A stretch of DNA of 55,875 bases, from IMG/VR virus record IMGVR_UViG_3300022188_000013, positions 1 through 55,875 of that record; one strand, given 5' to 3'. The notes under the pieces are model-generated. The model did no database searches, was not told where the DNA came from, and was given only the letters and a program-made list of their open reading frames with translations. Shown here piece after piece: positions 3,177 through 55,700 of this stretch. The DNA comes from a virus. Taxonomy: Duplodnaviria > Caudoviricetes. Made by a program: the position numbers and the translations under genes. The first letter of the stretch is position 1. Every line of letters begins with the position of its first letter.

Positions 3177-3229
3177 ATGGATTTTGCGGCTGTGTATTTA
3201 TTTACATTAGCCGTAAAATACCATTTTTT
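3177..3229 (+). terminator. Probable intrinsic terminator after capsid gene
   Basis: ATGGATTTTGCGGCT...AGCCGTAAAATACCAT stem followed by a T run. Confidence 0.6.
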
Positions 3230-26909: not shown

Positions 26910-27550
26910 TGAAAAGAGAACATGTAATAAAGAAAATTTCCAAGGGTATGGATAAATTAATTAAGAATTCTTTAGTACATAAGTTTACAAATGTAAGTGA
27001 AGAAGTTCGCGAAGTAATAATAGCTGAGTATGATGAGGAGTTAGTCGATGTTGTAACTGATAGAAAAAGTAAAACAAACCCTAATTTATATAGGGATGAG
27101 TTTATTGAACGCTTAGAATCGTATACTTATGTGAAGTATAGTGGTGATGTAGTAACGTTGTCTGTTCCTGACATGGAAACTTTTGATTTTTCTGGAAGGT
27201 TGAGGGTTATAGAATCCATCATGCGTGGATTGACAGGAATTTATGTTGAAATTAATGAAGAAGATTATATAAAAGTTTTTGGAAAGAGGCCTGTAAACCA
27301 GGAACCAATAGATAACTATGTGTCGCCTAAGGACAGGATATATTTGGTTAAACATACTGGAAAGATTAAAAGGTCAGAACGCGAGCTAAAGAAAAAATTT
27401 GTCCGTTATCCGTTTTCTAATACAGCCCCAATAGAGATACTTGAAGAAGGACAAAAATTTGTGGATGAAAACATAAATATGTGGACCGAAGAAGCCATTA
27501 CAGAAGCTCAAAAGGTATTTGCTTTAAATTATAAAGGAGCTAAATTATAA
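26909..27550 (+). CDS. Putative neck/tail-completion protein
   Basis: Translationally coupled ORF; function from synteny only. Confidence 0.5.
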   Translation: MKREHVIKKISKGMDKLIKNSLVHKFTNVSEEVREVIIAEYDEELVDVVTDRKSKTNPNLYRDEFIERLESYTYVKYSGDVVTLSVPDMETFDFSGRLRVIESIMRGLTGIYVEINEEDYIKVFGKRPVNQEPIDNYVSPKDRIYLVKHTGKIKRSERELKKKFVRYPFSNTAPIEILEEGQKFVDENINMWTEEAITEAQKVFALNYKGAKL

Positions 27551-31172: not shown

Positions 31173-32594
31173 GATGTCCCAGCGGTGGCTGTGACTCTCA
31201 ACACCAACGATTTCGGTGATGTAGCTACTTTAGCAATTTTGGCCCAGGTACCTGCAGCAAAGCGTGTTATGGCTGAGAATGCGACTTCAGCAGCCAACGC
31301 AAACATAGTGTCAGGGGCGACCTACCTCCATGGTGTCTCCTTGGCTGACTTTGCTGTAACATGTGGTAACCTTACCGGTATTACTATGTGGGCACCTGTT
31401 CAAGGTGAATGTAGTCTTGGTACTCTTGCAAATGATATTGACCAGACTTTATTTTTGGATGAGGTTTATATCAATAGTCTTGAGTTTAGTTATACTACCG
31501 GTGCTAATGCAACAGAGAACTACGGAGCTGAAACAGACAATAAGATGTGGTTGCTGAATAGTGGGGCTTTTGTTAACCACTTTATGGCCACAATCTCTGG
31601 TACTGTTATGAACTTTGATTTTAGTGCAATTGGCTATGATACTACATCTGTAATTCCTGATCTTTCTACAGGAAACTATGCTTTTTTGAGAAAAGATGAG
31701 GATGGTTCACCTGCAATTACTTTGTTTGATGTTGCTAGTAATGAAAAGGTTAATTATCCAATGATGAAAGGAGTTGCTGCTAATACAGATGCTGAGTCTA
31801 AGACTTTTGTTTTTGATGAAAGTGACGGTACTCTATATTTCCCAGCTGGTCCTTCACCTGCAGTTACTGTAGCAGACGGCGATGAAATTGAAATTATTTA
31901 TGCTGCAGATAAGTATTCGGATCCAATGAATACATATTTTGTAGAAAAAACTGACGGAGCTAACGCTGATGTTGGTGCCTTACGTCAGGGTCAGGTAGAA
32001 ATTTATATAATTGATGGTGATGACGCAGCAGCTGCATGGCGTTTGACTGGTGTTACAATTTCTGCTGATCTTACTCGTGAGCCTCTAACTGAGCTTGGCC
32101 ATCTCGGTCCTTATGATCGTCCGTTGACTCTGCCTATTCCTCTTACTGTAACTGTAGATTCTACAGCCGGTGATCTTGAGAATTGGGCTAGATTTTCTGG
32201 GCAGATCGTTGAGTTCGAAGATGGTACTATGTCCGACATCGATCTTAATGACCTTATGAATAAGGATGATCTTATGCTTATGGTCAAGGTTTATGAACAA
32301 ACCGATGAGGAAGCTGGCGGTACTGGCGTAAAACGTAAAGCTCTTACTGATAGTGTTATTGGTGAGCAGCAGTTCTTGGACGGTGTATTACAGCCGGCTT
32401 ATACTGCTAATGACTTAGAATACGCTCTTAAGACTATTGTAGTAAAGAATCTGAAAATTACTGATGAGGGAATGACTCTCGATGTCGGTGCGAATGCGAC
32501 ACAGACATTTGGTTTCCGTTCTACCAATGATTTATTTGTGGTCAAGGGTGATCTTTCTGCCAATTTGGCTGCTGGACTAACACGTGCTGTTTAA
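31173..32594 (+). CDS. Tail tube protein, exon 3 (spliced product 523 aa)
   Basis: DVPAVAVTLN...; E..ELG tube motif; lies between the terminator protein and the chaperones/TMP. Confidence 0.8.
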   Translation, partial: DVPAVAVTLNTNDFGDVATLAILAQVPAAKRVMAENATSAANANIVSGATYLHGVSLADFAVTCGNLTGITMWAPVQGECSLGTLANDIDQTLFLDEVYINSLEFSYTTGANATENYGAETDNKMWLLNSGAFVNHFMATISGTVMNFDFSAIGYDTTSVIPDLSTGNYAFLRKDEDGSPAITLFDVASNEKVNYPMMKGVAANTDAESKTFVFDESDGTLYFPAGPSPAVTVADGDEIEIIYAADKYSDPMNTYFVEKTDGANADVGALRQGQVEIYIIDGDDAAAAWRLTGVTISADLTREPLTELGHLGPYDRPLTLPIPLTVTVDSTAGDLENWARFSGQIVEFEDGTMSDIDLNDLMNKDDLMLMVKVYEQTDEEAGGTGVKRKALTDSVIGEQQFLDGVLQPAYTANDLEYALKTIVVKNLKITDEGMTLDVGANATQTFGFRSTNDLFVVKGDLSANLAAGLTRAV

Positions 32595-34783: not shown

Positions 34784-37700
34784 TTGGCTGATAATAACGT
34801 TAATATAAACATTAACGACAACTCCAACCGTAAAGGCTCAGCTGGCGGTATAGCAGGAAAAGCTGCCCAAACAAGTGTAAACGATCCTGCGTCAATAACC
34901 AAACTCGCTCGCCTATTAAAATCCGCTTTAGAAGAAAACTCTAAGAAGACTGGTGACGTCATTGACAAGGCCATATCTAAGCTAGTTCGTGTTATGGTCG
35001 AAAGTGCTGGTGGTGGTTCAATTAGCGATGCCGATATTAAGAGTATTATGAAGGGTGTTGGTAAAGAACTTGGCGACGAAGTTGTAAAATCTATTGCTAA
35101 AACCCTACCTAGGTCTTCCGGAGAAAAGCAGGATTCTACTGCTATAACTAAGGCCATAGACAACAGCATGGTAAGAGCTGCCGATAAAATGGCCCAGACT
35201 ATTTCAAGTCGACTATCAAAACAAGAGAACGTTTCAGTTAATTCAACAGAACTAGCTAAAGGAATCGCTAACTCTATGCGTAGAGCGGTGCCTGCTAGTA
35301 CTGATAAAGCTACAAGAGAACTTATACAGGCCATTGGCTCCATGAAAACTATTTTCAGAGATATTAAAACTTTGGTTAGTCAAATTGGATCTATGCGTAA
35401 GTCTGAGGGTAAAGTTGATGTTGGTGAGATTAGTAGTGTTCTTGGAAGCATTAAAAGAATTCTAACAGATTTTAAAGCTCTTTCACAGGAAGCTAGTAAC
35501 GCTAAAGATTCTTTGAAAGATTTAGCGTTAGAAAGTAAGCAGATGCTCGGTACTCTTACTACAGCTATTAATGATGTTAAGAGAAGTGCTGAAAAAACTG
35601 TTTCTGGTGTAAAGCAGAGAGCTGTTGGCGACCCTAAAGATTTTACTAAAGAAATTGTTACTTCTGTTGTAGGGATTATAACTAAATCAGAATCACTAAA
35701 AGGGACTTCTTTAGAGAAAGCTGTACGTAGTCTTGAGGGCAAGATCGGTGATATGTCCAAACTTTCTATTGAATTACAGAAATTTCAAAAAACATTTAAG
35801 CAGGAAATTACTTCTGGAACTATTAAAATAGAAGGTATTGAAAAGGTTTTAAAGGAATTTGATCAAATTGTAACAAAGCTAGGTAATGTGCCTAAGCAGA
35901 TTGGTATGGATAGAGCCTCTAAACAGGTTGGCATGGATAAGTCACCTAAGCAGATTGGTATGGGTAGATCTCCTAAGCAGATAGGTATGAGTAAGCCACC
36001 TAAGGAGTGGAAGGACTTCGCTAACTCTCTCAGTGGGTTCACACAGAGAACTACAAAATTAATTACACAAGTTAAACTTATAGTAGACGACTCTGAGATC
36101 AGAAAGATGATACCAGATGAAATTGCTGTAAAAATTACTCCAAAGGTTGAGTCTAAAACTATATACGATGATGTTGAAACAGCAATAATTCGTGCTCTTC
36201 ATGATGCTGAAAAGACAAAGATTACACCTAAAGTTGAACCGGTTGTTTCAAAAATTGAGATAGCTTTAAACAATAAAGATTTGGCAGGTATTAGAAAGGG
36301 GTTAGCAGAGCTTTCAAAGATTAAACTAGATTCTAGCCAACTTATCGATGATCTTAGAAAGAGAATTAATGTAATAGAAGGTAGTGCTGAACTAAAAATA
36401 AAGGCAGTTTTAGATACTAAATCTTATGACGATATGCTTGCTACTAAGGTTAAAGCTGATCATAAAAGACTTCAAGCAGCTTTGGCTACTACTGCTCCTA
36501 CTACTGTTGGGTCTACTGGCAGGTCTTTTTCAAAGATAGACCCAGTTGGCCGTTCTCTTTACAAACAGCAGACAGTTAAACCAGTTGAGGGTGGAGAGGT
36601 TAAACGTGCTAGTACTATTAGAATTTTGTCAAGAGATGCTCAAGGTATTAAGCAAGATACAGAGCAGAATATTAAAGCTTTGTCTGCTTCGTTATATAAA
36701 TTACAAGACCAGGTAGTTAGTGGGTTAGAGAAACAGTTTTCAGATGCTGAAAAGAAATGGGCTGTAGTTAAACCAACAGGAGGTACTGCAAGAGACGCTT
36801 TTAAATTAACTCCTGGTGAACGTCAGTGGACAATGCAAATTGCTAATCTAGATAGATTACAAAGAATAATGAAAGATTTTGATTCTGGTGTAATGGATTT
36901 AGTAAATGCGTATAAAGCACAGGCTGTACAAGAACGTGTTACTATGGCTGGTGGTCCGCAGAAACAGGCAGATTTGGTAGGACAATGGTTAAAGACTGTG
37001 TCTGCCCCACAGATTAAATCTGTAGAGGGTCTTGATAGTATAACAAAGGGTAAATTATCTAAGGTTAAGACCTCTTTTTCTGGTACAGACGTTAGTGACG
37101 AGATGCGTACACAGATACGTAAGCTTTTTGGTGATGTAAAACTAGAGAATATTTTTAGAAAAACTTATGCAGAATCTGAGGCTAAGCGTGAGTTACAGAG
37201 TGAGGGTTTAGTAAAACAGGTAGCTCTTCCTGCAGCTAAAGTGACAAAGACCGGTAGTGTTTCATTCCAGACGGTTCATGGTGCGGAACGTGCTTTGTCT
37301 AAATTTGCTAAGTTTGAGACTGGTTTTGAAAAACTTTATGAGGAGTTGACTGGTTTAGCTGTTAACGCAAGTAAAGAGGGTAAGAAACAAATTTTCACAG
37401 AAGCACGTGGTTTTACTGTAGCAATTAAAGAGTTGGGGGTACGCCCAGGCCCAGATAATTTAGCATCAGCGGATGCTCTTGCTAATAAGATGCTTTCATC
37501 TATAGTAAAAAATATAGGTGACAAGGCTGCAGGTTCTACATATACTAGAGAGTTATACACTGGGGCTGCTGCTTCAAAGAGGTTTGCAGTGAAAGAAGCG
37601 GGTGGAGATCCTGCTAAGTTCATGAAAGATTTTGAAGCTGCAATGTCAAGGACATATAAAAGTTTTGATGAGTTTTCAGCCGCTATGAAGGCGATAAACC

Positions 37701-40700
37701 TTTCAGCATATGATGTAGCTAAAAGTTTAAATAGTATAGAAGTTACTAATGTATACGATACAATTGGGAAGGTACTACAAGGGTCTAAGGGGTTATCTCC
37801 TATAACAACATTAGGTGAGAGTCCACAGTTCGAAAGGTCGGTTCGTGGATTTGAAAAAGCTGTTAGTGAAATTGAGGGGTTGATGCCTCTTTTAGAACAG
37901 AATCGTCCTCGTCGTGGTTTTCATCAAGAGAGTGTGGTTAATTTAATGTCTAGAACTGCTCCTTTTTATAGTTCAAAAGACAGACTTGATCCTGATGCAC
38001 AAAAGAAACTTATTAAAGATCTTAATTTAACTGTTAATGAGACTCTTACTAGAATCAAGCAGACAGACCCAACTAAACTTCCTGGTAATTTACAGAGGCT
38101 TACTAGTTTAGGTATTCCTGAATCACAGGCTGGTAATATAGAGGAGTACAGACAAGGTGGTACTAGCCAGACTAAGTTTTTGAAATCTTTGCAAGCAACA
38201 GGAATTAAATTATATAGCCAAGATTTGACAGCCCAAGCCCCTTTTCAACAGTTCCAACAGGTTGGTAGAAATATTTCTAATATAAGTAATGCCATGGTAG
38301 ATTTGGCAGGATCTGCAGAACTTCCTAAACTACGTTCTACAAAAGAGCGTGCCATTATTGAGAGTGGTAGATATGGTGAAAAGGGTTACGGTTATAACGT
38401 AACGGCAGAGTTACGTAATACTGCAGCTAACTTTGAGGATCAGATTATTATTGCCGGTAAGTTAGCGACTGCACTTACATCCGCTGTAAGTACTTTGGTT
38501 AAACCTAGTGCGACTGGCCGTGTTCGTGGTGCTACTACAGAGGATAGAATTTCTGGTACTGGTGTAACAGAACTCAAAGAACAAGAGATTACTAAGGTTG
38601 CCAGAGAGTATATGAGTATTTTAGGTGTGCCAGAGGAATATAAGGGGCGTGCAGATAAAGTTCTTATCGAGGACGTAAGGAAGACAGTCTCTGTTGTACG
38701 TGGTGAAGATGTAGAGGTACAGCAAGCTAAATTAGCTGAGACGTTTTTGAATTACTTTGGCAGAAAGATAACAACTAGATACGGGTCTAAGGGCGTTAGT
38801 GTTACTCCTACTGGACCTACTGAAAACCTTTCTGATATCATATCTAAATATTCTGGAGCAAAGATAAAGTTAGATCCGTCACAAACACTCGGTGCTGCTT
38901 TTGTACCTAAGACTATGGGTAAATTAGTTTCAGAGTTGTTTGGAGACAAAGTTTCTCAAGAGTTAAAGACCCAACTTATAGCTTCTGGTAATAAATTCAT
39001 TATTGACATATTTCAAAAAACAGGTAAAGGTGCTGTTGTTGCAGCTGATGAAGCTAAGAAGACTGCAGGATTATATAAAGAGTTTACTGCTGCTTGGGAA
39101 GATGTTTTTAGTAGTAAGGCTCCCAGTGTTGGTACTGGAGGAATAGCACAGATCCGGGGTAAATATCAGGATCGTTTTGGAGACAAAGCTCTAAAAGAAG
39201 TTAAACCAATCGATGTACGTATTAGTTCTTATGGTGCAGCTAAACGTGGTCTTCAGACTGAGTTTCTAGAATCTATATTCAGTAATGTAGCTGGTACAGG
39301 TAAAGGAGGCGTTACTACTGTAAAGAAACTTGATAAGCCTGCGTATGAGTGGCTTTTAAAGCACGGTGGTTTATCTAAATATTCATCTGCATTGGGGTTT
39401 AAGGGGTCAGGTAAGATGGAGGCTCAAATAGCTCCAGAGCTTTACAGTAAGTTTACTGGTAAGCCTGCAGACAAGTTTGCAGAAGCATTAGCTTCGGGGG
39501 ATGAAAAAGCTGTACTGGCCAAACGTGCTGCTTCTTTAGAGGCTGCTTCTAGTTTTTACTCTGAGCTGATAGATGAGTTTGGTAATAAACGTACCGGTCT
39601 TATTGGTGAAAAATTTCTACAGATTGTAGAAGAACCTGGTGAAAATCCAGAATGGCAACGAGGTCAGATTGATAGTGGGATGAAGGGGGCAAGGCTTAAT
39701 CTTCCAGCATTCTCAGCGTATGCTACTGTGTTTGGTGAGCAGTCTAATTTTATGAAAGAGTTACAAGGTAGTCTCGATGTTAACGCTAAGAAACATTGGG
39801 AATACATGAAGGCCCTGCAGACTATTCAGGATGAAGATAGTACCGTTTACAAGAATATTACTAAGGGATTGAAAACTGTGGATATTGGTGATCTTAGATC
39901 ATTTGATTCGTCTACTGGTGTTTATGGTAAAAAGCATATTACAGATGAAGCTGGTAATCAAGTAATCAATCAGAGAAGTTTTGATGACACAGTTTTAGAT
40001 CTAAATAAGTTTTCTGAGGCTTTTAAGATTGCAATTCCTACAGGTAAGTATGGTCCGGAAGGAGAGATTAAGAAGCAAGAGTTTTATGTTCCAGGAGCCC
40101 CTGCTAGAGGTACATACCCAGAACCGCTACTTGCAGGTGAAAGGGGCATGGACCAGATTACTCGCCGTTTGTCGCATTTTGTAAATATGGCTAAAGAGTT
40201 GCAGGAAGTTATGGAGGACCCAGATAAGTCTTTAGATGCAAATGATATTAGAAAAAAGATTCCACCAGTTATAGGAACATGGATTGGTGAGTCTTGGGAT
40301 ATAGCTAAATCTAAGGCTCCAGATGCCGAGGAACAATTGAGCGGTATACTTAACAAAATGTTTTCAGCTATGTCTACTACAAGTGCCCCTAGTTCATCAC
40401 TAATTAATACTTCTGGTAGGACAGAACAGCAGTTTGCTCAGGATTTCTATAAAGGTCAAATTAACAAAGTATCTCAGGGGCTCAAGACAAAGCCAGAAGC
40501 AATGGCAACTACTATATCCACTATGGGGGATTTGTTAGTTGGTAAAAAGAAGGGAACCCATGAACAGTTGGCAGCTCCTACAGGATTAACTCGTGCATTA
40601 GATCAGGGTATTGGTGGAGTTTTCGCACAGAAGTTGGGCATAGATGTTGTGCAGGACACTATAGATAAACGTGTATCTGCATTAAATAAAGCTAGAATAG

Positions 40701-43700
40701 ATTATTATAACTCACTTGCTGATGCTGCTACAGGGAAAACTGGAAGTATTAATGAGTTGTTGTTTAGTAGAAAGATTCCTGCTGTCATTGGAAAAGCTGT
40801 TACGGCAGTAGTAGATAAGAGAGATGATATTACAAAGTTTGGTAAAGATTTAGTAACCATAGAGTCTAAATATGGTGTTAATCTTGGTGTATCTGCTGAT
40901 AGTTTAGCAGATATTTCTAAGAAACATTCAGAGGCAGTTGTAAATTACCAGAAAATAGGTGTGCCAGTTTTAAAAGAAACAGAACTTGGAGTACCTACTA
41001 CTTTTGCCAAGAAGATACCTTTAGATTTTGTTAAGAAGTTTGTTGACACAAAGGATCCAATTATGGGGGTTAAGGAACAGAAGCCTGAAGCTGTTTCTGG
41101 TACACTGTACGATCTTCTTAAACATATAGAACAGATTAGAGAAGGGGCTAAAAAAGAGTCTCCTGGAATGCAGGATGTTCTTTCTAAGTATATAGACGAT
41201 GAGCTTGTGCCGTATGTAGAGAGTATTCGTTACCCGTTTACAGGTACTTCATCCATAGTTCCGTTTAAACCTAAGTTACTGGAAGAAAAAGATTATCAGA
41301 CAACCGAAGGTACTAAGCTCGCTAGAAATGTTCTAGTAGCCCCAGGTGTACCTGAAGGTTTGGATGAATTGTCGCCTATTTTAAGTAATTTACAAGAACG
41401 GCTCAAAGATGAAATTTCTAACAGAGAGAAGTTACAGAAAGCTGGGGTTCCTCAGGAGGAGATAGAAAGAGCTACAGGGCTTATTAGAGATCTTAGTGCT
41501 GCTATAGCAGAAGTTATTCCTAAGTACACTTCTCAAGCACAGAAACTTGATTTTGACGGTGATCAGATAGAGCTTCATTCAGCAAGAACAGTATCTGCTA
41601 GAAAAGATATAGAATCTCATTTTAAAAGATTTCACACAAGGGATAGTTCTAAAGATCCTTATACTGCTGACGTGTTTAGAACACAATTTTTATCAGAAGC
41701 TCCAGTTGCATCTACAGGACAGTACGTACTTGGTGAATCTTCAGCAGCGTTTGAGAAAAAATTTCCAGCTGGTAAAGGATTTGATTTTCTCCAAAGTCCG
41801 TTCTTAACAAAAGAACTTGAATACTTATCTTCAGGGGAAGCCCTTAATGTACTTAAGGATAACCCAAATATAGGTAATGTAGAGAACGTTATTAAGGATG
41901 TTCTAGTAACACAAAATAAACCTATTGATCAGATTGCGTCCGTAATGGAAACGATAGGTAATGTAGATACATCAGACGCAGACAAAGCTACTCAAAATAT
42001 AATGGAGGCTATCGGTGCCCATCATGCAGATCTAATGACTGTTATTGAGAAGGGTATTAAAAAGAGGTTGTATGAGGAAAAACTTGGAGACGCCATTGAA
42101 GCCCAGTTGTTTAAGGTACATACTGGCCCTGAAGTTGAGTCTTTATATAGAGTTCAAAGGCTTGCAGAGTCGTCTGTAGGTTTTGGAGGCGGTGAAATTG
42201 CAGGACGCCCAGATAAGAGTTCTAAGTATTTTCAAAGTCGTTTTCCTTCTAGTTTGAAGTCTATGGGGGGTCGCCCAGAAGAAGAATTTAATACAATGAT
42301 GAATGAGGTGGTTCGTTTCGGTATTCAGAAAGGTATGGACGTTAAACATGCAGGAGAAAAACCAGTAGCTGGTGAGATGGTTGGTTATCTTACTAGAGGC
42401 GTTAAGGGGGCTACAGAGCTGTGGTCAAGAGTACAAGATGAAAATGATAAAACTTTTGGTGATTTAAGAGATTTTGCTGGGGCTAACGAATCCGCGGTAA
42501 AAATGAGGCTAGGTGCTTTATCCACATCTGACATTATGTCAGAAGCCAAGAAGGTTATAGACTCTCGTGGTGAAAAAATGGATGTGTCTGGTATGGATAG
42601 GGAAGCTTTAATTCAACTAATGGTAGATAAGATAGGTTTCAAGGGGTTTCTTGAGGAGCTTTCTAGATTAATAAAAAAAGAAGCTATTGATGGGTTGATA
42701 GCACAGGCGGAGACTTGGTCGTCAGCTAAGAAGAAAGATCCTGGAGGAGGTTTACCTGAGGTTAAAGATAGTATAAAAGACTGGGCAAATCAAGCTGTCC
42801 AACAGCAGATGGAACGTGGAGGTATTAATATTCGTCAGGATATTACAGAAGGGAAGCAGCCTTTGTATGGTATGCGTACGTTTTTTTCGTCACCAACAGC
42901 TGAGTATGACAAATACAGAGGTAAGTTTGGCGATTTACAAGTACCTGAAGGTGAATTAGAAGGTTTGTCTGAGAAGGATACTAAATCTTACAAATTTAAA
43001 TATAGAAAAGCAGCGGCTACTGCTTCTAATATTAAACAAGAACTAAGGTCTTTTGCTGGGAGTAAGCAGGGCGGGGCTTACGCTGATATGATTAGAGGTG
43101 CTGTTGACGCATTGTATAGCCAACAAGAAGAAGTTGAAAAATATATAACTGCTTTAATGAAAGAAGGTTACAACTCAGAGGCTTCTAAAGGTGTTGCTAT
43201 AGCAGAGCGTACATTGTCTAGAAGCGGTGTTTCTGATTTTGCTAACTCAGTTCTTAATATGAGAACTGGTATGAAAGATGAGGTCTCTAGGCTTTCTGAC
43301 CTTGCAGGAGTTCCTGGATTAAGTAATACTGAGATGTTTGGTATTCGTCGTGAATCTTCAGAGAAATTTGCAGATATTAAACACAGTGAACTTAAAGATA
43401 CAGGAATGTCTGAAGAGGAGGTTAACTCTTCTGTTAAGGATTATGTAGACAGAATGGTAGATAAAGCACAAGCACTTGCACAATTAGACAGAGTAATTGA
43501 CTCTCTAGTGTCTAAAAAGTTTGAGGGAAGAGTGTTGCAAGATTTATTACCAAGACCAGATAAGGTAAGCCAATATAGTACTTATGATAAGACCCGTGGT
43601 GAGGCTTTTACTGCTGCTAGGGAAAAGATGAAGTTTAAGAATGGACGAGCCAGATTAACACAGCCGGCTGCTATGGCTTTTGGTAAAGAAGGAGGCCCTG

Positions 43701-46700
43701 CAAGTGCTAGTATGATGGGTGGTGCAGGTGGTGTTGTACCAGTCCATCTCGTAGGTACAGATCCAGGAGTTACACTTAATGTTAAGGGGCTTGAAGGGTT
43801 GGGTTTAGTAGAAAGAGTTCCTACATCTGTTGATAGAGTTGCAGAAATGGACATCGAACTTCAACAGTTTGCTAAAGATACTAAAGAGTTGGGTGATATA
43901 CTTAAAAAAACTAAGCCTCCAAGAACTGGTGGTAGGTCTACTAGTTATGAGGATTTTTATTCTCCAAGTAAATTTGCTGGTGGTGGTTTTGCTTATAGTG
44001 GAGGAGCAAAAGAGTTTACTGAGGAGGGGCGTCTAAAAGAGCAGGTCGAACGTATAGCTAGAGATATGATTTCAAGAGAGCCATTAGCTCCAGCATCGCA
44101 AGCCTTAGCTGACTGGGGTTCTGCTATTCATGCTAAGTTTGAAAAGTCTTTAGAAAAGCAGGGTAATGTGGAGGTTGAAAAGTACGGTGAGTTTGTAGAC
44201 GGTGTTGGTGGTGTTATTGGTGGATTCGCTGACATTGTTGAGTACGAAGGTACCGAAAAGAAAAAGGTAACCACTGTGGCCGATATTAAAACCGTAGGTG
44301 TTGATAAATTTGAAAAGATTCAATCTGCAGTAAAGAAAGCAGGTTCTACTGATTTTACTGAAGTATCTAAACAGTTGGATGATCGCACAGCTTTGCAGTT
44401 GGAAGATAATTTTAGTCAGCTTAATGCTTACTTAAAAATATTCGATGAAACTGCTAAAGCTGAAATTAGATTCTATGATAGAGAGGGTCGTGGTGAGAAC
44501 ATAGAGGATTACACTGCAGTATCTTTTGGATTTGATCCAGAAAGATTCCAGAAAGATATGCAGGCTTTAGCTAGTGCTAGAACTATAGTTAAACAAGCAG
44601 GAGGCAAGAAGTTCTTACGTACTAACGTAAGAAATCAAGCAGGAGCTGCTAAGCCTGAAGGAGCTTCAACTGAAGAACTTGATAGGGCTATGGAGTTAGC
44701 GAAACAAGCATATGAAAGAGAGCGTGGTGGTGGCGGTATTCGTGCTATGGCGTCTGGTATAGGAGCTAGCAAACGCGGTAAAGAGTACGAAAAGGCTAGA
44801 AAGGGTACGAAGGCTGCTGCCGAGCAAATGTCGAGAAAGGAAATGTATAAGAATCTTACTCCAAGTGAGTTAGATAAATATCTTGTACCACCTCAAGCAG
44901 TAGAGGGAGAAACTGCTGAGGCTTTTTTGACAAACCTTAAGTTATTACACGATCAGTCAAAATTGTATCAAAAGTCTAAGGGTTTAAGTATTGATACTAC
45001 TGACAAAATGCCGAAGCAGATCAAAGAATCTATTGAGTCCGTTAAAGATTCTGGACCAGATTACCAGTCTTTTATAGACCTTACTGGTAAATTAAAAGAA
45101 ATGGATCGTCCAGATTTTACCGGTATGGATATGATTAATGTTTGGAAGCTTTATAGAATAGCTGTTGGTGATTGGTTATTTAAGAGAGCTGATGATGCTT
45201 ATGAAGAGATGCAGGCACTTGAGGCTGCTGGAGATGTTAGGGGATCTAATCAGAAGTATGGTGATTTTACTAATAGGGTGTCTAGAGCCCAAGAGTTTGT
45301 AAGACGTAGTGTTGGGAAGCGTACTGATATTTATACCGATGACAAGAGATTTGTGTATCCTTCACTAGCTAAAAAGGCTGGTGTTTATATGAGTCCGTCT
45401 CAGGTCATGAAGAAGGCTGGAGAGCCGTTAGGTGACGATCCTAAGCTGATAGAAAGTTTTAGGGGTGTTGTACAGGGTATAAAAAGTGAGACAGGAAAAA
45501 CGCCTCCTGTGGAAGCTGCTAGAGCTATTTTTGGTGATCTATCAAATATGAACAAGGATTTTGCTAAGATTCTTTCAGACGGTGAAAAATTTAAACGTTT
45601 AGGTCCAGAGATATTAGACGCTTGGGATTTTGATAAACTTACCGCAAGAACAACAAGATTAAGAGCTGCCCTACAAGAGATCCTTAGAGATAATAAGGAG
45701 ATGGATGCTGAGCAAAGGAAGAATGTTGAAAACATAGTCAAGTATCTTAAGAAGGTAGAGGGTATGTATTCACATATGAATTTAGGGGGTGAACAGACTG
45801 GTTACGGACAGACAGGTATTGTGCCAGTACCTAAATTTGAGACTCCTGCTAATCAGAGAGCCTTACATGCTAGAAATATTCAATCAACAAGGGAATATTT
45901 CAGACGTCCTTCTGAGGAAGGCGGTCCTGACATTGGTGAGCGTTTTAGTTATAGTGAAAAAATAGTTGGTCAGGCAGGCGAAACTATAAAAAATGTTACC
46001 CATCATTTTAGTAAATACGGTGAAGAGCTTTTAGCTTCAGGCCAAAAAGTAGGACAGTTTTCAGAGTCACAACAGGACATAATTGAGAAGATGCAAAAAG
46101 TTAATGCTACATTTAGTAACGCGGTAAGACGTGTTACTTTGTGGGGAGCAGCTTCTCGTTTAGTATATGGTAGTGTGTCTAACCTTAAATCATCTTTAGA
46201 CGAACTTACAAACATCGAGATGGGTGTAGCAAGTTTGAGAATGGTTATGAGCCCTCTTGAAACAGATTTCCAGAAAATGACTAAATCTGCTTCTGGACTT
46301 GCTAAGCAATACGGTGTTCCTGTAACTGATGTGTTGAAATCAATGAAGGTTTTTGCACAGCAAGGTTTGAAACAGGGCGATGTAATTAGTAGAACTAAAA
46401 CAGCTACGCTGGCTTCTAACGTTACTACCTTAAATTCTAAGGAAGCTACCGAAGCTTTAACAGCTGCTATGAGGGTCTTCCGTGAGGAGGGTTCACAATC
46501 ACTGAGATTCTTGGATGCTTGGAGTGAGGTTGAGGCTAAGCACGCTATTACAGCAGATGATATGGCTAATGCTATTAAAAAATCAGCTGCTGCTGCTAAG
46601 AGTGCTGGTGTTAATTTTGACCAATTGAATGGTATGGTTGCAGCTGTTGGTGCTGTAACTAGGCAGACTGGTAAGGAAGTTGGTACGTCTTTTAGGTTTA

Positions 46701-49700
46701 TTTTTAGAAGGTTGTTTGCTGAAGAAGGTCCTAAAACACTTGCTAAACTAAAGATTCCAACTTTAACGCCTGAAGGTGAGTTAAGGGGGGCTTTTGATGT
46801 ATTAGGTGATTTGGCAGGTCAGTGGGATGATTTAACATCAGCCCAGAGAATGAATGTTGCACAATCAATTGGTGGTACTAGACAGTACAATAGTGTACTA
46901 GTTTTAATGGATCAGTGGGATGAAGTTCTTAGAGGAATTAGAAATAGTACTAATTCTAAAGGGTCTGCTGAGAGACGTAATGCTGAAATCATGAAAACTT
47001 ACGGCAAACAGCTTGAGAGGACAAAAGCTGCTGCCACTGAGTTTAAGATGGAAATAGGTAATATAGTTTTACCGACATTCACAGCTGGTGCTAAGTCACT
47101 AACGTTTTTATTTGAAGCTTTGACTGCAATACCAACACCGATTAAGGCTGCTTCTGCAGCACTAGCTGCGTTTTTTACATTCGGTGCTAAAGGTATCAAT
47201 TTATTTGATTCTATTGGTAGCGGTGTAGAGAAGGGGGCTAGTCTTTTTAGTAATTTCGGAAATGAATTCTCGAAGAGCATGAAGATTGCAAAGTATGAAA
47301 TATTAGGTAAAGCTGACGCTACTACTAATATATTTGGTCTTAAAACTTTAACACCTACTGCTACTAAGACTGCTAATGCTGTAAAACAAAAAGGGTTCCC
47401 TCTTACTGAGCAGGGTGAGAAAATGTCAGATTTTCATTCGTCTATAGGTAAGACGATGTCTTTACTACAGGGTTGGGGTAGGGGCTATAATGAAATGATT
47501 GGTGGAATGATAGTCGGTACTGGTGCTCTTACAGAAAAGGTTGGGGAAGGTGCACAAGATGTTGGTGCTTTTTTAAGCCTTGCTGCTGGAGGAGCAGATA
47601 ATGTCGGACTTGAGGGGTTGAAGGACGTACTTCAAGGCGGTGCAGCAAGAAAAGGGCTTAGTGCTGTAGCGATAAAATCAGTTTTGAAAGGTCAAGGTGT
47701 TATGAAGGGTGGTGCAAAGCTTTTGGTTAGATTCGCTGCACTAGCCTCAGAAATAGTTGGATCAGCTACATACTTAACTGGACAGGCCGTGGACGCTGTT
47801 GGGGAGCAGGTAGGTGCCGGTGGACATAAAATTTTAAAAGATTTTACTACACAGAATACTGGTTTTGTTAAATCAGTTGCACCATTAGCGTTAACTGTTG
47901 CTGCTATGGTTCCAGCTATTAAGGCAGCTTCAGAATATTTTGGAAAAATGACAAATAGTGCACAAGGTTTTGAAAAAATCATGGACGGGGCTCGCCGTAA
48001 GAATGAATCTCAACTTAAATCAGTTAGAGATATGGTACAAGAATATGAGGCCCTATCAGGCCAAGTTAAAAATGTAGAAAAGGTTAGAGACCCAGAAGTT
48101 AAGGCCAGAAGGCAGGAATTGGGTACTTACGAGTCGCCCCTAACCACATTACAGAAGGTACAAGGTAGGGCCGTTGATCTTACAAACCAGATAGCAGACT
48201 CTAATCAAAACTTAGTAGTTGGTTATGATGATCTCGGTAATGCTGTTCTTAAGACTGGTAAGAATTTTAAATCTTATCTAAAAGATATAGAGAATTTAGA
48301 TGTACAAGCTGGTGTAGCTACAGAGTTGGAAATACTTGGTAAGTACTTAGATGATTTGTCTAGTGGAAATAAAACTGAAAAGGTAAAGATGGCTTTTAAA
48401 GAATTAGCTGCGGCTTTTCCAGTAATAGGGGATTTGGTAGGTAGACATATTAAAGTTAGTCCTGCACAGCAATTAGAGGTAGCAGCTACAGATCTTAATA
48501 AGAGATTAAATTTAAAACAAAAATATCCTCTATCAACTGCTGGGGATGCTGATATTAAGAGGTTACAGGGAGTTCTTGGTAAAGCACGTGATGCATATAA
48601 AGACACGTTTTCTGATATGACAAGGGTGTATAGTACTGTTCTTTCTCGTGCAAATCTAAGGGGGCTTAATAAAGGACAGATAGAAGAAGTAGTTGGTTCT
48701 CCTGAGCTTAGAAAAGCTTACGAGATGCAGATAAAAATAGATCCAAGATTTAAATTAGTTGAAGGAGTTAAGTGGCAAGATATAATGGGTAAAGAGCTTA
48801 TTACTGCCCTTAACCCATCTACTGCAGGAAGTTTAGACGTTGTATCTGAGTTTACAAAAGCAAATTTAGAATCGGCCGGTGTAAAACCACGTTCCGGAAA
48901 AGCTGCTTCTGGTGATATAGTTATGTTTCATAAAGATATGGCTGATAAATATAATATAGCAGGTGCTCAGGCTATAGTAAAATTGAAAGATACTGATGAG
49001 TGGGTAATAGAATATTTCAATACAAGAACTTTAAAGTTAGAAGAGCGTTCGTTGTCAGATGTTGATAATATGGTGGAGAGTATTTTTCCATTACAGAAGG
49101 TAAAAGAAGATATAGCTTACCGAATGGACGCATTGAATACGTTTGTTGCTGGAGCTTCTGCTGGGTTGACTGGGTTATCTAAGAAAGATTTTAAACGGGA
49201 TTTTAATTTAGGCGAACGTTTTTTTGGTGAAATCCCCACTACTACACTTCTTCAGGGCAATAAAGGGTTTCTTCCTGGGTCAGGTTATGGTGAGCTCGAA
49301 GGAATGAAGGATTTTAAGGGTGATATTGAAAATTATTTTTTCAAACCAATGGGGGAGTTGCGTAATAAGACCGAACAATTCAAGAAGTTACAGTTAGAGG
49401 GTTTAGATGTTAGTGATACTGCTATATCTAAAGGTTTTTACGATGAAATTAATAAACTTTTGGATGTTCTTAAGAATAATCAAGTTGTATTACAATTCAG
49501 AGCAGTTTTTGTTGATCTCATGAAAGAGATGTCTACAGGACAGCGTGTACTTAGAGAAGAGCTAGCTATTATGAGACGTCGTGCAGATATCAATGTTACC
49601 CCAGGGGGGCTTACTCGTGGTATGCCTATAGGTTTAGAAAATATAGATCTTGGTATTAGAGATGTGAGAGATGTAACCGCAAGACAGAGCTTATTAACTA

Positions 49701-52700
49701 GAGATCCTAATTCTAGAAAACAGGCAACTCAATTAAGAGCTTTTGAAATAACAACTCAAAGTAATATGGATATGATAGACAAACTTGAGCGTGCTATTGT
49801 TCATATCGATGATATATCTTCCGTGGCAGGGGGATTTGGGGCAAGTATGTCTACAGAACAACTACAGAACTATGTTGAAAAGGTGGTCCCTGAAAGAGGG
49901 GAAGGTCCATTCTATGAGTTGACACAGATAGATAAGGGGATAGAACAGAATACCTCTAATACAGTGGATAAACTAGATAAGATATTAGAAAATCTAGGAG
50001 ATCCAGAAGCTGTTGAGAAGAGTTTAACTAGTATATTTGATAATTTAGGGGCTGGTTTAGGTGTAGGTGTGAGTGGAAATGCACTGAAGACAGTAAACGC
50101 GTTAGAGCGTGTTTCTAGAGTTAGAAAAAAGGCAGAGGGTAGAGGTGATCAAGACACTGTAATATCTTCAAATAAAGCATTAGATATATTGTCTAAGCAG
50201 CTTATAGCTCAAGTAGGTTACAAGAAGGGTATGGAGATGGTAAGTAGTAATACTACTCTCTTTTCTAAACGGTTTACTGGTAGGGAATTTCAACAAAGAG
50301 CATTTTCAGGTGTGGATTCTAAGGTGTTTTTGGACAGACTAAAGAAGTATGGTCCAGAAAAGAAAGGTTTTCTTGGGATAGGTAGTCGTCCTCCTATGGA
50401 GGAAAGTAAAGCTTTTAAAAATTTTGAGAAGGCTCAGCAGGCTACCGTAAAACAGACAACTTTTTCTAGCAAGAACTTAGCTAGAGTTGGGGCTGTTACT
50501 GCAGCACTTTCCAAGATTCAACAGTCTGGAAATAAAAATATAATTAGTAAGATAGACGAACAAATATCAATTATAGATCAACAGGTTACAGATAAAAGAC
50601 AAGCTGGTGCTGGTGCTGATGAGTTAACTGGGTTAATAAAGAAACGCGAATCTTTAACTCTTAAAAGAGATGAAAAACGTGGTGAGGCTGATTTTTATGG
50701 CACTGTTGCGGCAATCAGTGCCACAGGTTTTGCAGCTGTAGAGCTATCAAAAGCGTTTGGTTTAACCGAAAAACAAATTAATGCCTTAGGTGTAGGTGCT
50801 GCTGGTACTTACGCAGCAATGGTAATAGCCTCTAAGGTTACTGGTGAACAATTACCAGATAGTGCTAAGAAGTTCGGTGAAGAAATTAAGCGGCTAGGTA
50901 AGAAGACAATTCAAGGTGAGAAGCCTGGTTTACGTGATGCTAAAATGCTTAAAAATGCAGGTAAGGAGATGTCTAGAGACTTTGTCGACAGAACTAAAAA
51001 AGTGTTTGGTAAAAGTGCCAAAGATATAGGAACAGCTGCTACAAAAGTAGATTCAGAAGAGTTAATAAAGAAATTGGATGCTAGTTTGGGTCGTCGGGCT
51101 AAATCCATGAAAGATTACACTTCTCTGGGTCCAGATTTTGCTAAGTACGCCGCTATGATGAGAAGTCAAACTAAAGAAAAGTCTGGTCTTTTGGAGGATG
51201 GTAAAGCAACAGATTCAGCGGTTTACAAGGATCTTACAACGCGTCAGAATGCTGAGACTGCCAAGTTTTTACGTGGTTTAGGAAGAGAAGATAAACGCGA
51301 TGTTTTGTCTAAATACCCTGTTACAGGTAAAGACGACTTGCATAAGTATGTGGCTGAGTCTTTTGGCCCAGAGTTAGAAAAAACTGGTGAGTATATGGTA
51401 CGTGGTTTAGAGAAAGCAGAAGCACCATCTAAACTGAAACAGGCTATAGTGGCTTATTTGGCAGTCGGGTTGTCTGATTATATGTCTAATAAAACTGCAG
51501 ATAAGACTGCATTGGCAGAGACAGAAAAGATTATGAAGCGTCAGTCAGAAGCATTAGCTGAGCTCATTAGGAAATACCCAGATGCAGCTGAGATGGCTTT
51601 AACTGATTTACAGAAAGAAGTAGGTACTGCTGTAGCTGAGGTATCCGATATTACTACTATTGACAAGTCTATGGTGCAGGATACCAAAAAAGCTAAAGAG
51701 TCTATTAAACGCCAGATAGCTGAAATTAGAGATACATATATAGAAGAACAAAAGAAAGCTCTTGATGAGCAAAGGAAAGTTCAGAATAAGTTTGCAGATA
51801 GAGAGTCTAGAGAAAGTTTAAAGATTAAACAAGAAACAGCAGCTCGTGACAGAAGGGGTCAAATAGATTCGTTTAACATAAGCCGTCGTTTCTCCCCAAC
51901 TAACTTACTAAATAAACAATTACAAGGTTTTTCGGGGGAAGTGGAGCTTCCTATAGCTGAAGATCAGATGTCTACCCAGCAAAGGGTATATAATGACTCC
52001 GGTAAGAGCTTTAAAGGTGTTATAGATAGTTTTTCTGCCGGTGTGCAACAATTAGAAAGTATGCGTAATAATTTAGAAATGTTAAAACAGGCGGCGAGGG
52101 TTGAGGAAGATTTAGTAGATACTACTGACGATGATGATGTAAAAAGAAGGGCTAAAGAACGTCACAAAGATCTTAATGACACTATGACAGACCAGATTGG
52201 TGTGATAGGTAAGTTTGCCGAAAAACTTAGGGAGTTTGGTAAGTTAAAGGGATTGTTTGATCAGTTTGCTAGCTCTATGCACCGTCTAAAAGACTCTCTC
52301 AAGGAGATTGGTGTTCAAGAAGCTGTAGAAAATATACCAGGTATGCAGCAGTATAAAGGCCGCATGAACAAGTTATTGGGCGGGACAGATCCAGATGCTG
52401 TTGTTCCAGTGTCTACTGAAGAGTCTCGTATGAGTAGTAGAGTAGGTATGGATTTACAGCATATGTTGTCAACTAAATATGAAGTGATGAGGGCACAGTT
52501 ACTTGATCAGTTAAGAACTGCTTCACCAGACGAAGCTAGTAAACTTAGAAGACAGCTTTCTGATTTACCAGAGCAACGTGTAAGAGATATACAGGCGTTT
52601 AAACAACGTGAGGAAGATGACAAGTTACGAAGAGGATTACAACCTTATGAGAAACAGGTCACAGAGCTTGGACGTGTTAAAGCGTCTCCTTTTATAAGTG

Positions 52701-55700
52701 GTAAGCAGGTTATGGCTGCAGGACATATGCAGCAAGAATTAGTCGATATTCTAAATAATGCGGCAAAAAGGATAACCATTGAACAAGCTCGTAAGGAGCT
52801 TAAAGCAAACAAAGGAAGTCTTACTAGAAAGGAGTACAAAGCAGAACAAAGTAAAATAGACGAACTTGAGAAACAGGGTACACCACTAACTTACAGGGGA
52901 ATTAGACCTTGGGACCAGAAAAAAGTACGTAATATGTCAGTAGAGATCCAAGAAGCTATGAAGAAGGCAATGATGGGTTCAAAAGATGGATTAGAAGCAC
53001 AGCTTATTTATGATCCGATAGTTTCAGCTATTACCGATACAAACGCTATTCTAACAATGATAGCTGAAAAAGAGTTTGGTATTGATTACGATAAGAGTTT
53101 TATTGGTGATATGCAGGATAGAGCGTCTAAGATTGGAACAAGGGGAACTGATAAAGTAAAACAGTTCATGGAGGTTTTAAATCCTACAGACATAAGGAAC
53201 CCATTTGAAATAGCTGGTGATGCTATTACTAGGTTTGTAGACAGGCTTGGCGGTTTCGAACCAGAACGTAAGCCTTTCGAGAAAAAAGCTGCCGGAGGAA
53301 GGGTGTTTGGTCCAGGAGGACCGAAAGAAGATAAGGTGCCGGCCTGGTTAAGCCCAGGTGAGTATGTAATTAGGGCTAATTCAGCACAGAAATTAGGTCC
53401 TCAAGTACTTGATTACATGAATTCTAGTGGCAATGTACCGTCATCTATACCAACATTTAGTAATGGTGGTAATGTGTCGTCATCTGTACCAGTATTCAGT
53501 AATGGGGGTAAAGTGTCTTCAATTTCTGACGATATGCAGAATTTTGTTAGTTATCTAGAATCAGAAAGATTGGCATTATCGGACAAAGATATGACACCTG
53601 GAAGCTTGATGAAGCAAGCTGGTCTTGCTACTACAGAGTTGGTTACTAGATTACTTAAATCTCCTGTTGATTTTGGAGCTATGACAGAAAAAATGGCAGG
53701 GTTTGCTGGTAGTGAAGGTTTTGGTGCTACTTTAGATGTTGGAAAGCAAGTGGGTAGTAATTTAATTGATCTCGTAAAAGGAGGTATTACCTCAGAGCAA
53801 GTAGCTAAAGTTACTGGTGGTATGAAGGAAGGTATTAGTAAAGGCGGTATGGGTATAACAACAGCTATACTTGAGACTTTGCTTGGAGGTACTGCGGTAG
53901 TTAAGAAGTTGGCACCACCTACTGATTCACTTAAGGGACAGCTTAAGCTGTTAGCCAAAGATGTTGATCCTATAGTATCGGAACAAGCTAAAGACGCTCT
54001 TAGTTCTCAAGCGGTTAAAGAACTTTCAAAAAGTAAATCCTTTAAAAAAGATTTTAAATATTTGGCCGGTGGTAATGAAGCTTTAGTATTCAAGCGTGGA
54101 GATAAAGCAGTCAGACTAGGCGGACTTAGTAGCCCAACAGCGTTGGAAAAAGTAAGGAAAGGTAATATATTTAGTATTGCTGATGAGCTTACAGATGAAG
54201 AATTGTTGGCTAAAATTGGACAGCATTTAACTAAACGAGAGCTAAATGAAATCGGTTCAGCTAATAAGTTTCTAGCCCATGGTAAATTTAAAGATAAGGA
54301 CATTTCAATCTCTACGTTACTTGACACAGAAAAAGTTAAAAGTTTAGATCCTGTATTAGGTATTAGAGGCATGTTAGAAAAGCAGGGGGCTGTTCCTGGT
54401 AATTATGGGCAAACTTACTTTAGTAGGGGTAAGTCTGGTCAGTTTTACCAAATTGGTGATCTACATCCTGGAAATTTTGGTTTCGATAAGAAAGGTAAGC
54501 TTTCAGGAATAGATCCGGGTATGTATAAAAAAACTGATTTGGATAAACTTCCATACGATGCACAAGATGCTTTTTTTAAAAAGAACCAAGATCCTACATT
54601 GTTTGATTTGAAAGGTAAAGTACTAAAAAAAGCTGAAGGTGGTATAGTAGAAAATTGGCTTAAAACTGCAAAAGAGCATTGGTTTGGTAAAAAAGAAGAA
54701 ACAGAAGATGATGAAAAACTTCTTAGAAGAATAACTGAAGATAGAGGTATATCTTTTGATGAGGGTGCAGGAGGTTCTTACTTTGAGACCGGTAAACAAA
54801 AGAGGAAACGTTATGATGAGATGTTGGGTTATGCTTCTGGTGGTAGGGTTGGAGTAGATGTGGACGAACGAGGAAGACCTATACATTATTACACTGCTGA
54901 TGCTTCAGGGTATGCTAGACACGATAGCAAAGAAGATTTTGATGCTGCTGTTAATAGAAGAAAAGAAGGGAATGCCACACAAAACGGTAGTACTGTTCAA
55001 TCTAATCCTAGTGGTTTAACACAAGCTGAAATTACACAAAGAATTGAAGAGGCATATGGGCCTGCCAATGAAAGGGTTACAGAAAGATTGTTTCCTGAAA
55101 TAGAAAAAAAGTCTCGTCCGGAAAATATTTTTGCGGATACTCCTAAGCAGTTAGATGCCAGTAGTTTAAACTACAATAACGCAATGAAGTATATTGAAAA
55201 TGTGTATAAGCGTATTAGTGGTGGAGTTACAAACAGTTCATCACTTAAAACCAAAACACAAATAAATCTAGAGGAGAGTTTGACTACTAATGGTATATTT
55301 AACAAAGTTAGTGCGTCTTCTCGTGCTTCAGAATTCGCCGAGGTTATGCAGAACATTGAAGCTGCGTATGGGCCTATTAATGATGCGGCTACAAAAAGAC
55401 TGTTTTCTGTAGACATACCGTCTTTCGATTCATACGATCAACTCAGTAGTGGGCTTGAAACAACAGGACAATACACTAGAAATGTAGTAAACGCTGTCGT
55501 ACACCCATTTGAAGCTTCTAAAAAAGCTGCTAAAGCTTCTTACGGAGTAGGTTCGAAGTGGGCTGAGAAAGCTTACGGAGTTGGTTCAAAGATAGCGGTG
55601 CCAACTTACGGAGTTAGTAAAGACATAATAGGGACTGGCAAAGAGATGATTACAAACCCATTAGAAGCTTTGAAGACTTCTGTTAAAGCTGGTTACGGAG

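Follow-up and report, generated by a model that had tools for sequence, protein, structure and literature searches.

The closest described counterpart of the gene treated here is gp96 of the Thermus phage P23-45, a tape measure protein (TMP) of 5,002 amino acids (aa) in which an active two-barrel virion RNA polymerase (RNAP) occupies residues 327-1124, with a DFDGD motif at 779-783 (PMC10770324). The full-length gp96 is present in virions and transcribes the pre-early genes from defined promoters; its crystal structures have been deposited as 8H2M and 8H2N, and it is paired with the non-virion RNAP gp64, an ancient duplication being the probable origin of the pair (Chaban et al. 2024, PMC10770324). 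In the main text of that paper, P23-45, P74-26, G20c and TSP4 are the only phages credited with a TMP-RNAP fusion, and the words metagenome and jumbo do not occur. Supplementary Data 4 of the same paper lists GenBank viruses with two RNAPs and, among the rows examined, gives a TMP fusion for Thermus phages only (PMC10770324). Here, we describe a giant open reading frame (ORF) in a linear viral record of 55,875 bp (IMG/VR record IMGVR_UViG_3300022188_000013), the whole of which is called the window below and whose estimated completeness is ~21% of the genome. This gene probably encodes a phage tape measure carrying an internal, complete, very divergent single-chain two-barrel RNAP, which would be delivered with the virion for early transcription.

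The giant ORF starts with a TTG codon located 6 nt downstream of GGAGGT and reaches the end of the contig without a stop; the complete relatives of its product are ~7,000-8,000 aa long. A sequence-only reading of the window had proposed that a beta-beta' RNAP is fused inside the tape measure protein, and had stated that no characterised example of such a fusion was known to it. The second statement does not hold, since gp96 of P23-45 is a proven tape-measure-fused virion RNAP (PMC10770324). Meanwhile, all 14 motif strings on which the proposal was based were found once each, in the order given there, between aa 832 and 2,524 of one ORF. On the beta side they include HGAER (aa 832), APFQQFQQVGRN (1152), PKLRSTKERA (1181), NFEDQI (1216), GRKITTRYGSKGV (1326), PIDVRISSYGAAKR (1475) and GARL (1635), and on the beta' side SLADAATGKTG (1977), LFSRKI (1993), ELGVP (2067), RYP (2149), KLDFDGDQIELH (2254) and GIQKGMDVKHAG (2513). 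The same frame holds the tape-measure core recognised by PF10145, which upholds the proposed fusion at the level of sequence profiles; the presence of a single-chain beta/beta'-type polymerase module in one polypeptide with a tape-measure core is thus supported. The features on which the argument depends are as follows, with the two halves of the module assigned to the sides of the two double-psi beta-barrels (DPBB).

34784..55873 (+): giant ORF, 7,030 codons, no stops, 3'-open at the contig end
37787..42733 (+): two-barrel RNA-polymerase-like module, aa ~1002-2650; conserved block, with the hhalign match starting at aa ~1002
38231..40183 (+): beta-like half (DPBB-B side), aa 1150-1800; aligned by hhalign to a family of stand-alone RNAPs
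38429-38446 (+): NFEDQI, within the beta-like half
38759-38797 (+): GRKITTRYGSKGV, within the beta-like half
39206-39247 (+): PIDVRISSYGAAKR, within the beta-like half
40184..40483 (+): variable connector, aa 1801-1900, linking the beta-like to the beta'-like half; identity falls to 0.19
40661..42733 (+): beta'-like half (DPBB-A side), aa 1960-2650; PF00623 matches and hhalign match at the DFDGD block
40712-40744 (+): GKTG block, within the beta'-like half
41228-41245 (+): RYPFTG, within the beta'-like half
41549-41563 (+): DFDGD (D2256, D2258, D2260), within the beta'-like half
42320-42355 (+): trigger-loop-like block GIQKGMDVKHAG, within the beta'-like half
45998..48076 (+): tape-measure core, aa 3739-4431; PF10145 and TMP PHROGs
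46283-46756 (+): part of the core matched by Pfam PhageMin_Tail (PF10145), aa 3834-3991

The polymerase homology of the module was traced through a second protein of the same lineage. When five related records were searched with a profile of the polymerase-like module (A3, 34 sequences), an ORF of 1,178 aa was found in the genome G003 (L081:3001-6534) with an E-value (E) of 3e-4. This protein matches the Pfam families Rpb2_6 (PF00562) and then Rpb1_2 (PF00623), in the correct order and each slightly below the cut-off, and its homologue of 1,102 aa (L082:1453-4758, minus strand) in G001, a genome of 268,764 bp rated 100% complete, passes the PF00623 cut-off with 28.2 and 25.6 bits in two scans (curated cut-off, 25.3 bits). 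These stand-alone RNAPs form a family with a size of at least 270 and with lengths of ~1,100-1,200 aa. Of 120 members listed, the majority have a precomputed assignment to PF00562 and/or PF00623, and in the source records the proteins are either called "hypothetical protein" or lack a usable name. A profile of 32 stand-alone RNAPs (A5) matched 49 sequences in PDB at E<=0.1, of which 47 were bacterial RNAP beta subunits (best E 8.4e-5) and 2 were gp96 (8H2N and 8H2M). Aligned directly to gp96 by hhalign, A5 gave a probability (Prob) of 89 and an E of 2.1e-6.

The hhalign comparison of A3 with A5 yielded Prob 99.0 and E 3.1e-18 over 448 columns. The blocks paired in it were PFG..RN, FED, G-[RT]-K...G-[SN]-K-G, [PK]-I-D-V and then K-G-x-K-[LF], and with a profile of aa 600-1200 the alignment to A5 started as early as aa ~1002 (Prob 88.8, E 2.5e-6). 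In the control comparisons with A5, reversed profiles gave E 0.52-0.66 and five other segments of the giant protein gave E 0.24-0.9. Distant members, taken singly, also matched the stand-alone RNAP profile, with E 7.7e-10 for P0088, 3e-10 for P0091 and 1.8e-5 for L014. In the 36 aligned relatives, which have 34-75% identity, the residues E1218, D1219, R1327, K1328, R1332, G1334, K1336, G1337 and R1488 are invariant. The FED and G-R-K...G-S-K-G blocks are thus kept in 36/36 and paired with the same blocks of A5, and it is on this region that the PDB match of the A5 family to RNAP beta falls. The FED of NFEDQI presumably corresponds to E813/D814 of E. coli, a numbering taken over from the sequence-only reading. 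The best local hhalign match to E. coli RpoB covers 1062-1076, including K1065 and K1073, and is not significant alone (E 0.29); a six-frame scan of the window with PF00562 gave no match at E<=10. Judged from these profile comparisons, the beta-like half is homologous to a bona fide RNAP family.

The evidence for the beta'-like half centres on the DFDGD block. When the window was scanned in six frames with PF00623, a single match resulted, which lies on the DFDGD block (41540-41614, E 1.3e-3, 14.5 bits). When 36 relatives were scanned singly, 25 of them had PF00623 on the same block, all below the cut-off and with a best E of 3e-5, the E of the window's own protein being 0.065; the next commonest family was seen in 4/36. 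Scanned in six frames with PF00623, the 268-kb genome G001 gave matches in exactly two genes, namely those of the stand-alone RNAP and the giant ORF. In the hhalign comparison of the profile A6 with A5, the DFDGD block alone was aligned (E 6.4e-4, Prob 28), and broader profiles lifted this match to E 5.8e-5 and Prob 66. Sliced runs gave three collinear top local matches, on the GK.G, R.P.TG and DFDGD blocks; it should be noted that in two of the three runs a non-collinear R.P.TG pairing ranked second, above two collinear matches. The residues G1984, G1987, R2149, P2151, T2153, G2154, D2256, D2258, G2259, D2260 and H2265 are invariant in 36/36, and distant members carry near-canonical strings such as THLDFDGDMVAVH and GDKFISRGGNKGV.

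DFDGD is followed by two invariant blocks, K-x-H-T-G-P-E and N-E..R..Q.G.DVK.A, which stand in the right order for a bridge helix and a trigger loop and pair with blocks of the stand-alone RNAPs in a low-confidence alignment. The best local hhalign match to E. coli RpoC covers 457-481, with D460, D462 and D464, and is not significant alone (E 0.012). In the alignment to E. coli beta', the counterpart of N458 is K2254, two residues before the first Asp, in agreement with the substitution that had been suspected from the sequence. The profile comparison that had been proposed as a check gave a clear match for the beta-like half, to the stand-alone family, and a weak one for the beta'-like half. 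Since the six-frame PF00623 match is a single one, the motifs are invariant in 36/36 and the profile scores lie far beyond those of the controls, chance can be set aside, and the module is almost certainly homologous to two-barrel RNA polymerases as far as profiles and motifs can tell.

The module is widespread within one family of giant proteins. A phmmer search with aa 1150-2349 against 1.84 billion cluster representatives gave 110 proteins at E<=1e-3, each representing a cluster at 50% identity; most are 6,800-8,000 aa long and match at their aa ~1,000-2,500. Proteins having both a DxDGD RNAP and a PhageMin_Tail-type core, which it had been suggested to look for, were abundant among them: 48 of the 50 relatives of at least 5,000 aa combine D[FY]DGD, the RNAP-like region and the TMP core in one chain. 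The remaining two have DHDGD and DLDGD, and the catalytic signature DxDGD, expected to be conserved in homologs, is kept in 50/50. Scans of IMG/VR and of metagenome contigs found 13, 31 and 33 loci on contigs of up to 284,791 bp. Four long viral records, one of which is G001, have the frame open over 7,577-7,820 aa, and the sizes of the related genomes are ~234-285 kb. A word-index search retrieved 63 giant relatives, 61 of which have precomputed PF10145, and a tblastn search of 50,697 GenBank phage records gave no match and no cultured relative.

That the fusion is a product of chimeric assembly, or of two genes read as one, has a negligible probability in our estimate. The contig does end in a repeat inside the ORF and breaks occur in the relatives L022, L049 and L010, but the 7,030 codons of the window are free of stops, the same frame is seen in relatives from many samples (50 representatives of at least 5,000 aa), and the breaks in L049 and L010, which are frame changes, lie downstream of the module. 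Because the same continuous architecture is present in dozens of independent contigs, the gene is one continuous frame and not an assembly artefact. Introns were considered as the cause of the broken relatives and rejected, as no Rfam match was found in L022, L027, L049 and L010.

Two further groups of sequences were noticed beside this family. A second, distant clade, represented by L013 (9851-10510) and L014 (4653-5312), has the motifs H-R-D-P-T-T-G and N-L-DFDGD-Q-I-E-I-H, with PhageMin_Tail (E 4.4e-24) in the same ORF as the DFDGD motif. On a 177.8-kb viral contig, L106:1718-18490 is a complete, cysteine-free, tape-measure-like ORF of 5,591 aa; its TMP core is alike (37% identity), it has neither DxDxD nor polymerase similarity, and its first 2,760 residues match nothing.

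The identity of the giant protein as a tape measure was assessed by the same means. PhageMin_Tail (PF10145) matches it with E 4.6e-21 and 76.1 bits, the cut-off being 33.2. Eleven tape-measure PHROGs match at aa ~3,620-3,991 (best phrog_4211, E 9.1e-55), and four of these matches run on to aa ~4,454. Three more PHROGs, phrog_25241 (E 1.7e-13), phrog_6090 and phrog_3547, fall on a motif near the C-terminus. Identity was then calculated per 100 aa against 30 full-length relatives. It is 0.10-0.33 over aa 1 to ~1001 (at most 0.22 in the first 600 aa), 0.36-0.50 over aa 1000-1800, 0.19 at aa 1801-1900, 0.34-0.47 over aa 1900-2700, has its maximum of 0.64-0.70 in the TMP core, and does not exceed 0.14 in the last 700 aa. 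The TMP core thus ranks first in conservation and the polymerase-like module second.

The giant protein of the window contains no cysteine in 7,030 residues, and the 50 relatives of at least 5,000 aa have 22 cysteines in 358,557 residues. For comparison, cysteine makes up 1.55% of the stand-alone RNAPs and 1.57% of the 31 other ORFs of the window. The L014 protein (4,643 aa) and gp96 (0/5,002) are cysteine-free too. Such a lack would fit a protein that leaves the cytoplasm through a narrow channel, and we infer a link with ejection; shared with gp96, it may serve as a sequence marker for other ejected enzymes.

The arrangement of the complete genome G001 separates the two polymerase genes. The giant gene lies at 148,970-171,973 in a 165-kb arm of plus-strand genes, and the stand-alone RNAP lies at 44.3-47.5 kb in the opposite, non-structural arm. 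The latter arm also encodes a sigma-70 region 2 protein (L090:6759-7526, minus strand), RuvB-like, RtcB and RNA ligase proteins, NAD-salvage enzymes (NAMPT, NMNAT/Nudix), an anti-Pycsar Apyc1 homologue and others; Ro/TROVE and several phiEco32-like COOH-NH2 ligases are encoded in G001 as well. Because G001 encodes the sigma-70 region 2 protein and the anti-Pycsar homologue, a bacterial host is indicated. An archaeal host was considered for two reasons: one stand-alone RNAP is labelled Thermococci archaeon, and L103, a 16-kb contig and the only match when 185,579 species genomes were searched, belongs to a metagenome-assembled genome titled Candidatus Woesearchaeota. Given the bacterial-type genes of G001, these labels are probably binning noise and this host was rejected.

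From the N-terminus onward, the order of parts in the proposed protein would be a variable region of ~1,000 aa, the beta-like half, the connector, the beta'-like half with DFDGD, the bridge-helix-like and trigger-loop-like blocks, and the TMP core. We regard it as likely, by analogy with gp96, that the module is incorporated into the tail, is ejected for early transcription and is then relieved by other polymerases. The giant protein would form part of the tail and leave it at infection, and the polymerase module, at or inside a channel of the cell envelope, would transcribe the first-entering genes without the help of the host, possibly also helping to draw in the ~270-kb genome. The stand-alone polymerase of the non-structural arm would take over next, and the host polymerase with the phage sigma factor later. 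A wider version is speculative and in our opinion doubtful. In it, the protein would be an injected polyprotein of several enzymes and free of cysteine, which passes through a very long tail in a largely unfolded state and refolds at the envelope. Its polymerase would both transcribe and help to reel in the ~270-kb genome, and it would be accompanied by a RecB-like nuclease and perhaps by a kinase. The protein would open a programme of three stages, in which the fused polymerase is followed by the stand-alone phage polymerase and then by the host polymerase with a phage sigma factor, and the module would have been recruited from the stand-alone enzyme of the lineage independently of the Thermus phages.

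A number of results weigh against an active, virion-delivered polymerase within a tape measure, and they are considered together with the alternatives on which they bear. No curated cut-off is reached by the module: at default thresholds, neither Pfam nor PHROGs gave a match on aa 801-2600, and the PF00623 matches of the window reach only 13.9-14.5 bits. Searches of PDB with the module by phmmer and hmmsearch gave no polymerase match; in the ESM Atlas, the beta'-like half had no usable match, and the beta-like half had tape-measure leads only, all of them sub-threshold (under 0.9). Against the stand-alone RNAPs, the beta'-like half attains only Prob 28-66 in hhalign. The R.P motif stands 105 residues before DFDGD, compared with ~35 in E. 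coli and gp96. The position of N458 is occupied by Lys, which is not disqualifying because the active gp96 has Gly there. No similarity of the module to gp96 itself was detected (hhalign of A3 with gp96 327-1200, Prob 0.3). In L022, a single TAG (7804-7806) interrupts the beta-like half with the same frame on both sides; it may reflect an error of sequencing, a nonsense mutation or readthrough.

The strong divergence of the beta'-like half, the long insertion between R.P and DFDGD, the Lys at the N458 position and the failure of every curated model to pass are also what a polymerase-derived module would show if it had ceased to polymerise and had become a plug, a DNA-binding domain or a structural part of an ejected tape measure. 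We consider such a decay very unlikely, as DxDGD is retained in all 50 long relatives, and as the trigger-loop-like block and the basic residues of the beta-like half do not vary in 34-36 of 34-36 sequences, whose overall identity is ~35-40%. Invariance of this kind is what an active site, rather than a scaffold, would show. Moreover, gp96 is equally divergent yet active (PMC10770324).

At the genome level, the 141 upstream regions of G001 share no promoter-like 9-mer, only generic A/T-rich words being found, and the stand-alone RNAP was not found in G002 (89% complete), while it is present in G001 and in G003 (87% complete). The missing promoter motif would suit an active nucleotidyl transferase whose main role is another one, for example that of a transcription-driven, genome-pulling motor or a primer-making enzyme, or one having a relaxed sugar or template specificity; the very large genomes of the relatives (234-285 kb), the substitution at the N458 position and the nuclease-like motif set downstream in the same protein can be read in the same way. 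Nothing, however, separates such an enzyme from one that makes mRNA, and the roles can coexist, while the fused enzyme that has been studied transcribes pre-early genes from defined promoters (PMC10770324). As an alternative to early transcription, another main role therefore appears improbable to us.

The surroundings of the giant gene are likewise uninformative as to a tail: 27 of the 28 neighbours of the giant gene in G001 have no PHROG match, the remaining one being a homing endonuclease, and no sheath family was found in four records. The giant protein might accordingly be an ejected cargo polyprotein with a domain of tape-measure type, as in crAss-like and N4-like phages, and not a ruler of tail length. 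Besides the absence of an identified sheath, tube, chaperone or distal tail protein among the neighbouring genes, it speaks for such a cargo that matches to TMP families cover only ~700 of the more than 7,000 residues. Yet the TMP core is the best conserved part, its PHROG match reaches E 9.1e-55, and a second TMP motif is located near the C-terminus; L106, although devoid of the polymerase module, still has 5,591 aa and the same core. In addition, 7 of the 8 named relatives are called "TP901 family phage tail tape measure protein" in public records and one "hypothetical protein", none being named a polymerase. On balance, we find a mere cargo protein unlikely and continue with the tape measure carrying a polymerase.

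This putative tape-measure polymerase shares with gp96 the combination, in one polypeptide, of a single-chain two-barrel-type RNAP with DFDGD and a giant tape measure, the absence of cysteine, the location of the module N-terminal to the TMP core, a second, stand-alone RNAP in the related genomes G001 and G003, and a similarity to cellular RNAPs that is almost confined to the metal loop. The differences are considerable as well. The PDB matches of the module do not include gp96, so that the sequence link between the two runs through the stand-alone family alone. The module is internal here (aa ~1000-2650 of more than 7,030) and about twice as long as the minimal active fragment of gp96 (327-1124), the module of gp96 being N-terminal, with a flat fold that lacks a clamp. 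It occurs in low-GC jumbo genomes of ~235-285 kb, compared with 84 kb for the phage of gp96, and instead of a metallopeptidase domain, which was not seen, a set of nuclease motifs of RecB type is present.

The stand-alone RNAPs have a homologous beta-like half and the same order of motif blocks through the beta'-like half, and they are encoded together with the giant protein in both G001 and G003. In contrast to the module, they are free proteins of 1,100-1,200 aa with a normal cysteine content (median 18), belong to the non-structural arm, lie closer to the Pfam models and keep the Asn before DFDGD. Bacterial RpoB and RpoC differ from the module, which is one chain with large insertions. The virion enzyme of N4 is T7-like and not of the two-barrel type. 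Like the protein described here, the virion RNAPs of crAss-like phages (phi14:2 gp66, PDB 6VR4) and N4-like phages are polymerases in very large ejected proteins for early transcription, but these phages are podoviruses without a tape measure (PMC10770324). Phages of phiKZ type likewise have jumbo genomes and carry a two-barrel polymerase of their own into the host; their virion RNAPs, however, are multisubunit and head-packaged rather than part of a tail protein (PMC7824862; PMC7598289). An assignment to the mReC lineage of Weinheimer and Aylward was rejected because the phages of that lineage have beta and beta' as separate subunits (PMC7481178).

The fusion is therefore not new in kind, gp96 being the precedent, and it is this lineage and layout that appear to be absent from print. 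No prior report of the present family was found in the literature, the remaining supplementary tables of PMC10770324 being a place that could bear on novelty. What is new is a large uncultured family of jumbo phages with an internal module, no detectable similarity to gp96, a nuclease motif set and a near-total absence of cysteine; its giant proteins are among the longest phage proteins on record. The proven fusion comes so far from four closely related Thermus phages, and here the same solution would be met in a large jumbo group unrelated to them in sequence. If the module was recruited independently of the Thermus phages, the fusion of a polymerase with a tape measure would be a recurrent solution and not a curiosity of one genus. 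The family also offers a case in which to ask how a folded polymerase passes through a tail, whether transcription aids the internalisation of very large genomes and whether such fusions had more than one origin.

The remaining features of the giant ORF are the following.

34784..37786 (+): N-terminal region, aa 1 to ~1001; poor conservation, no family match
44117..44428 (+): PD-(D/E)xK (RecB/Cas4-like) nuclease motif set, aa ~3112-3215; matches to PHROGs of Cas4 type
47864-47920 (+): hydrophobic segment in the tape-measure core, aa 4361-4379
53282..53485 (+): C-terminal motif common to other tape measure proteins, aa 6167-6234; phrog_25241, phrog_6090, phrog_3547
54455..54538 (+): weak ABC1/atypical-kinase-like catalytic-loop match, aa 6558-6585; PF03109
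55523..55875 (+): direct repeats at the contig end, 134-nt copies and 33-nt sub-repeats

In the N-terminal region, Pfam and PHROGs gave nothing above the cut-off for aa 1-800, and aa 1 to ~1001 had no similarity to the stand-alone RNAP profile (hhalign E 0.42). The nuclease motif set is located between the polymerase-like module and the TMP core; it matches PHROG families of Cas4 type with E 9.9e-4 and 6.7e-3, and no Pfam match was obtained for this region. Its motifs G..H, E, G..D, DIK and SQ.N.Y are conserved in 21 aligned sequences, comprising the window's protein and the relatives that have the region. The kinase-like match (D-L-H-P-G-N ... I-D-P-G) belongs to the poorly conserved C-terminal part and is below the cut-off (PF03109, E 0.022, 14.4 bits). 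A precomputed RNase_T/DEDDh exonuclease domain (PF00929) was seen in four of the 63 giant relatives (P0262, P0263, P0264 and P0061). The 134-nt repeat copies at 55523-55656 and 55742-55875 are 98% identical and contain the 33-nt sub-repeats. As the contig stops in this repeat inside the giant gene, the repeat is the probable cause of the assembly end and of the truncated ORF.

The immediate neighbours of the giant ORF in the window have no family match, and the genes upstream of it include fibre-like proteins (Mtd_N, Ig, PKD). A group I intron (RF00028) was matched at 1359-1599 (+) with 82.3 bits, and two more matches to RF00028 lie under the gathering score, at 29627-29829 (+, 46.8 bits, E 4.4e-10) and 30923-31106 (+, 30.5 bits, E 3.4e-5). 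They are adjoined by LAGLIDADG ORFs at 214-1041, 1834-2610, 28912-29796 and 30064-31023. Since each intron match stands beside a LAGLIDADG ORF, the structural genes at 27550-28491 and 31170-32594 could represent exons of a single interrupted gene. Finally, the ORF at 4108-5580 (490 aa) combines a PHROG match of homing-endonuclease type (E 1.1e-72) with a Mom-like/GNAT domain (E 2.8e-7 for Pfam Mom).

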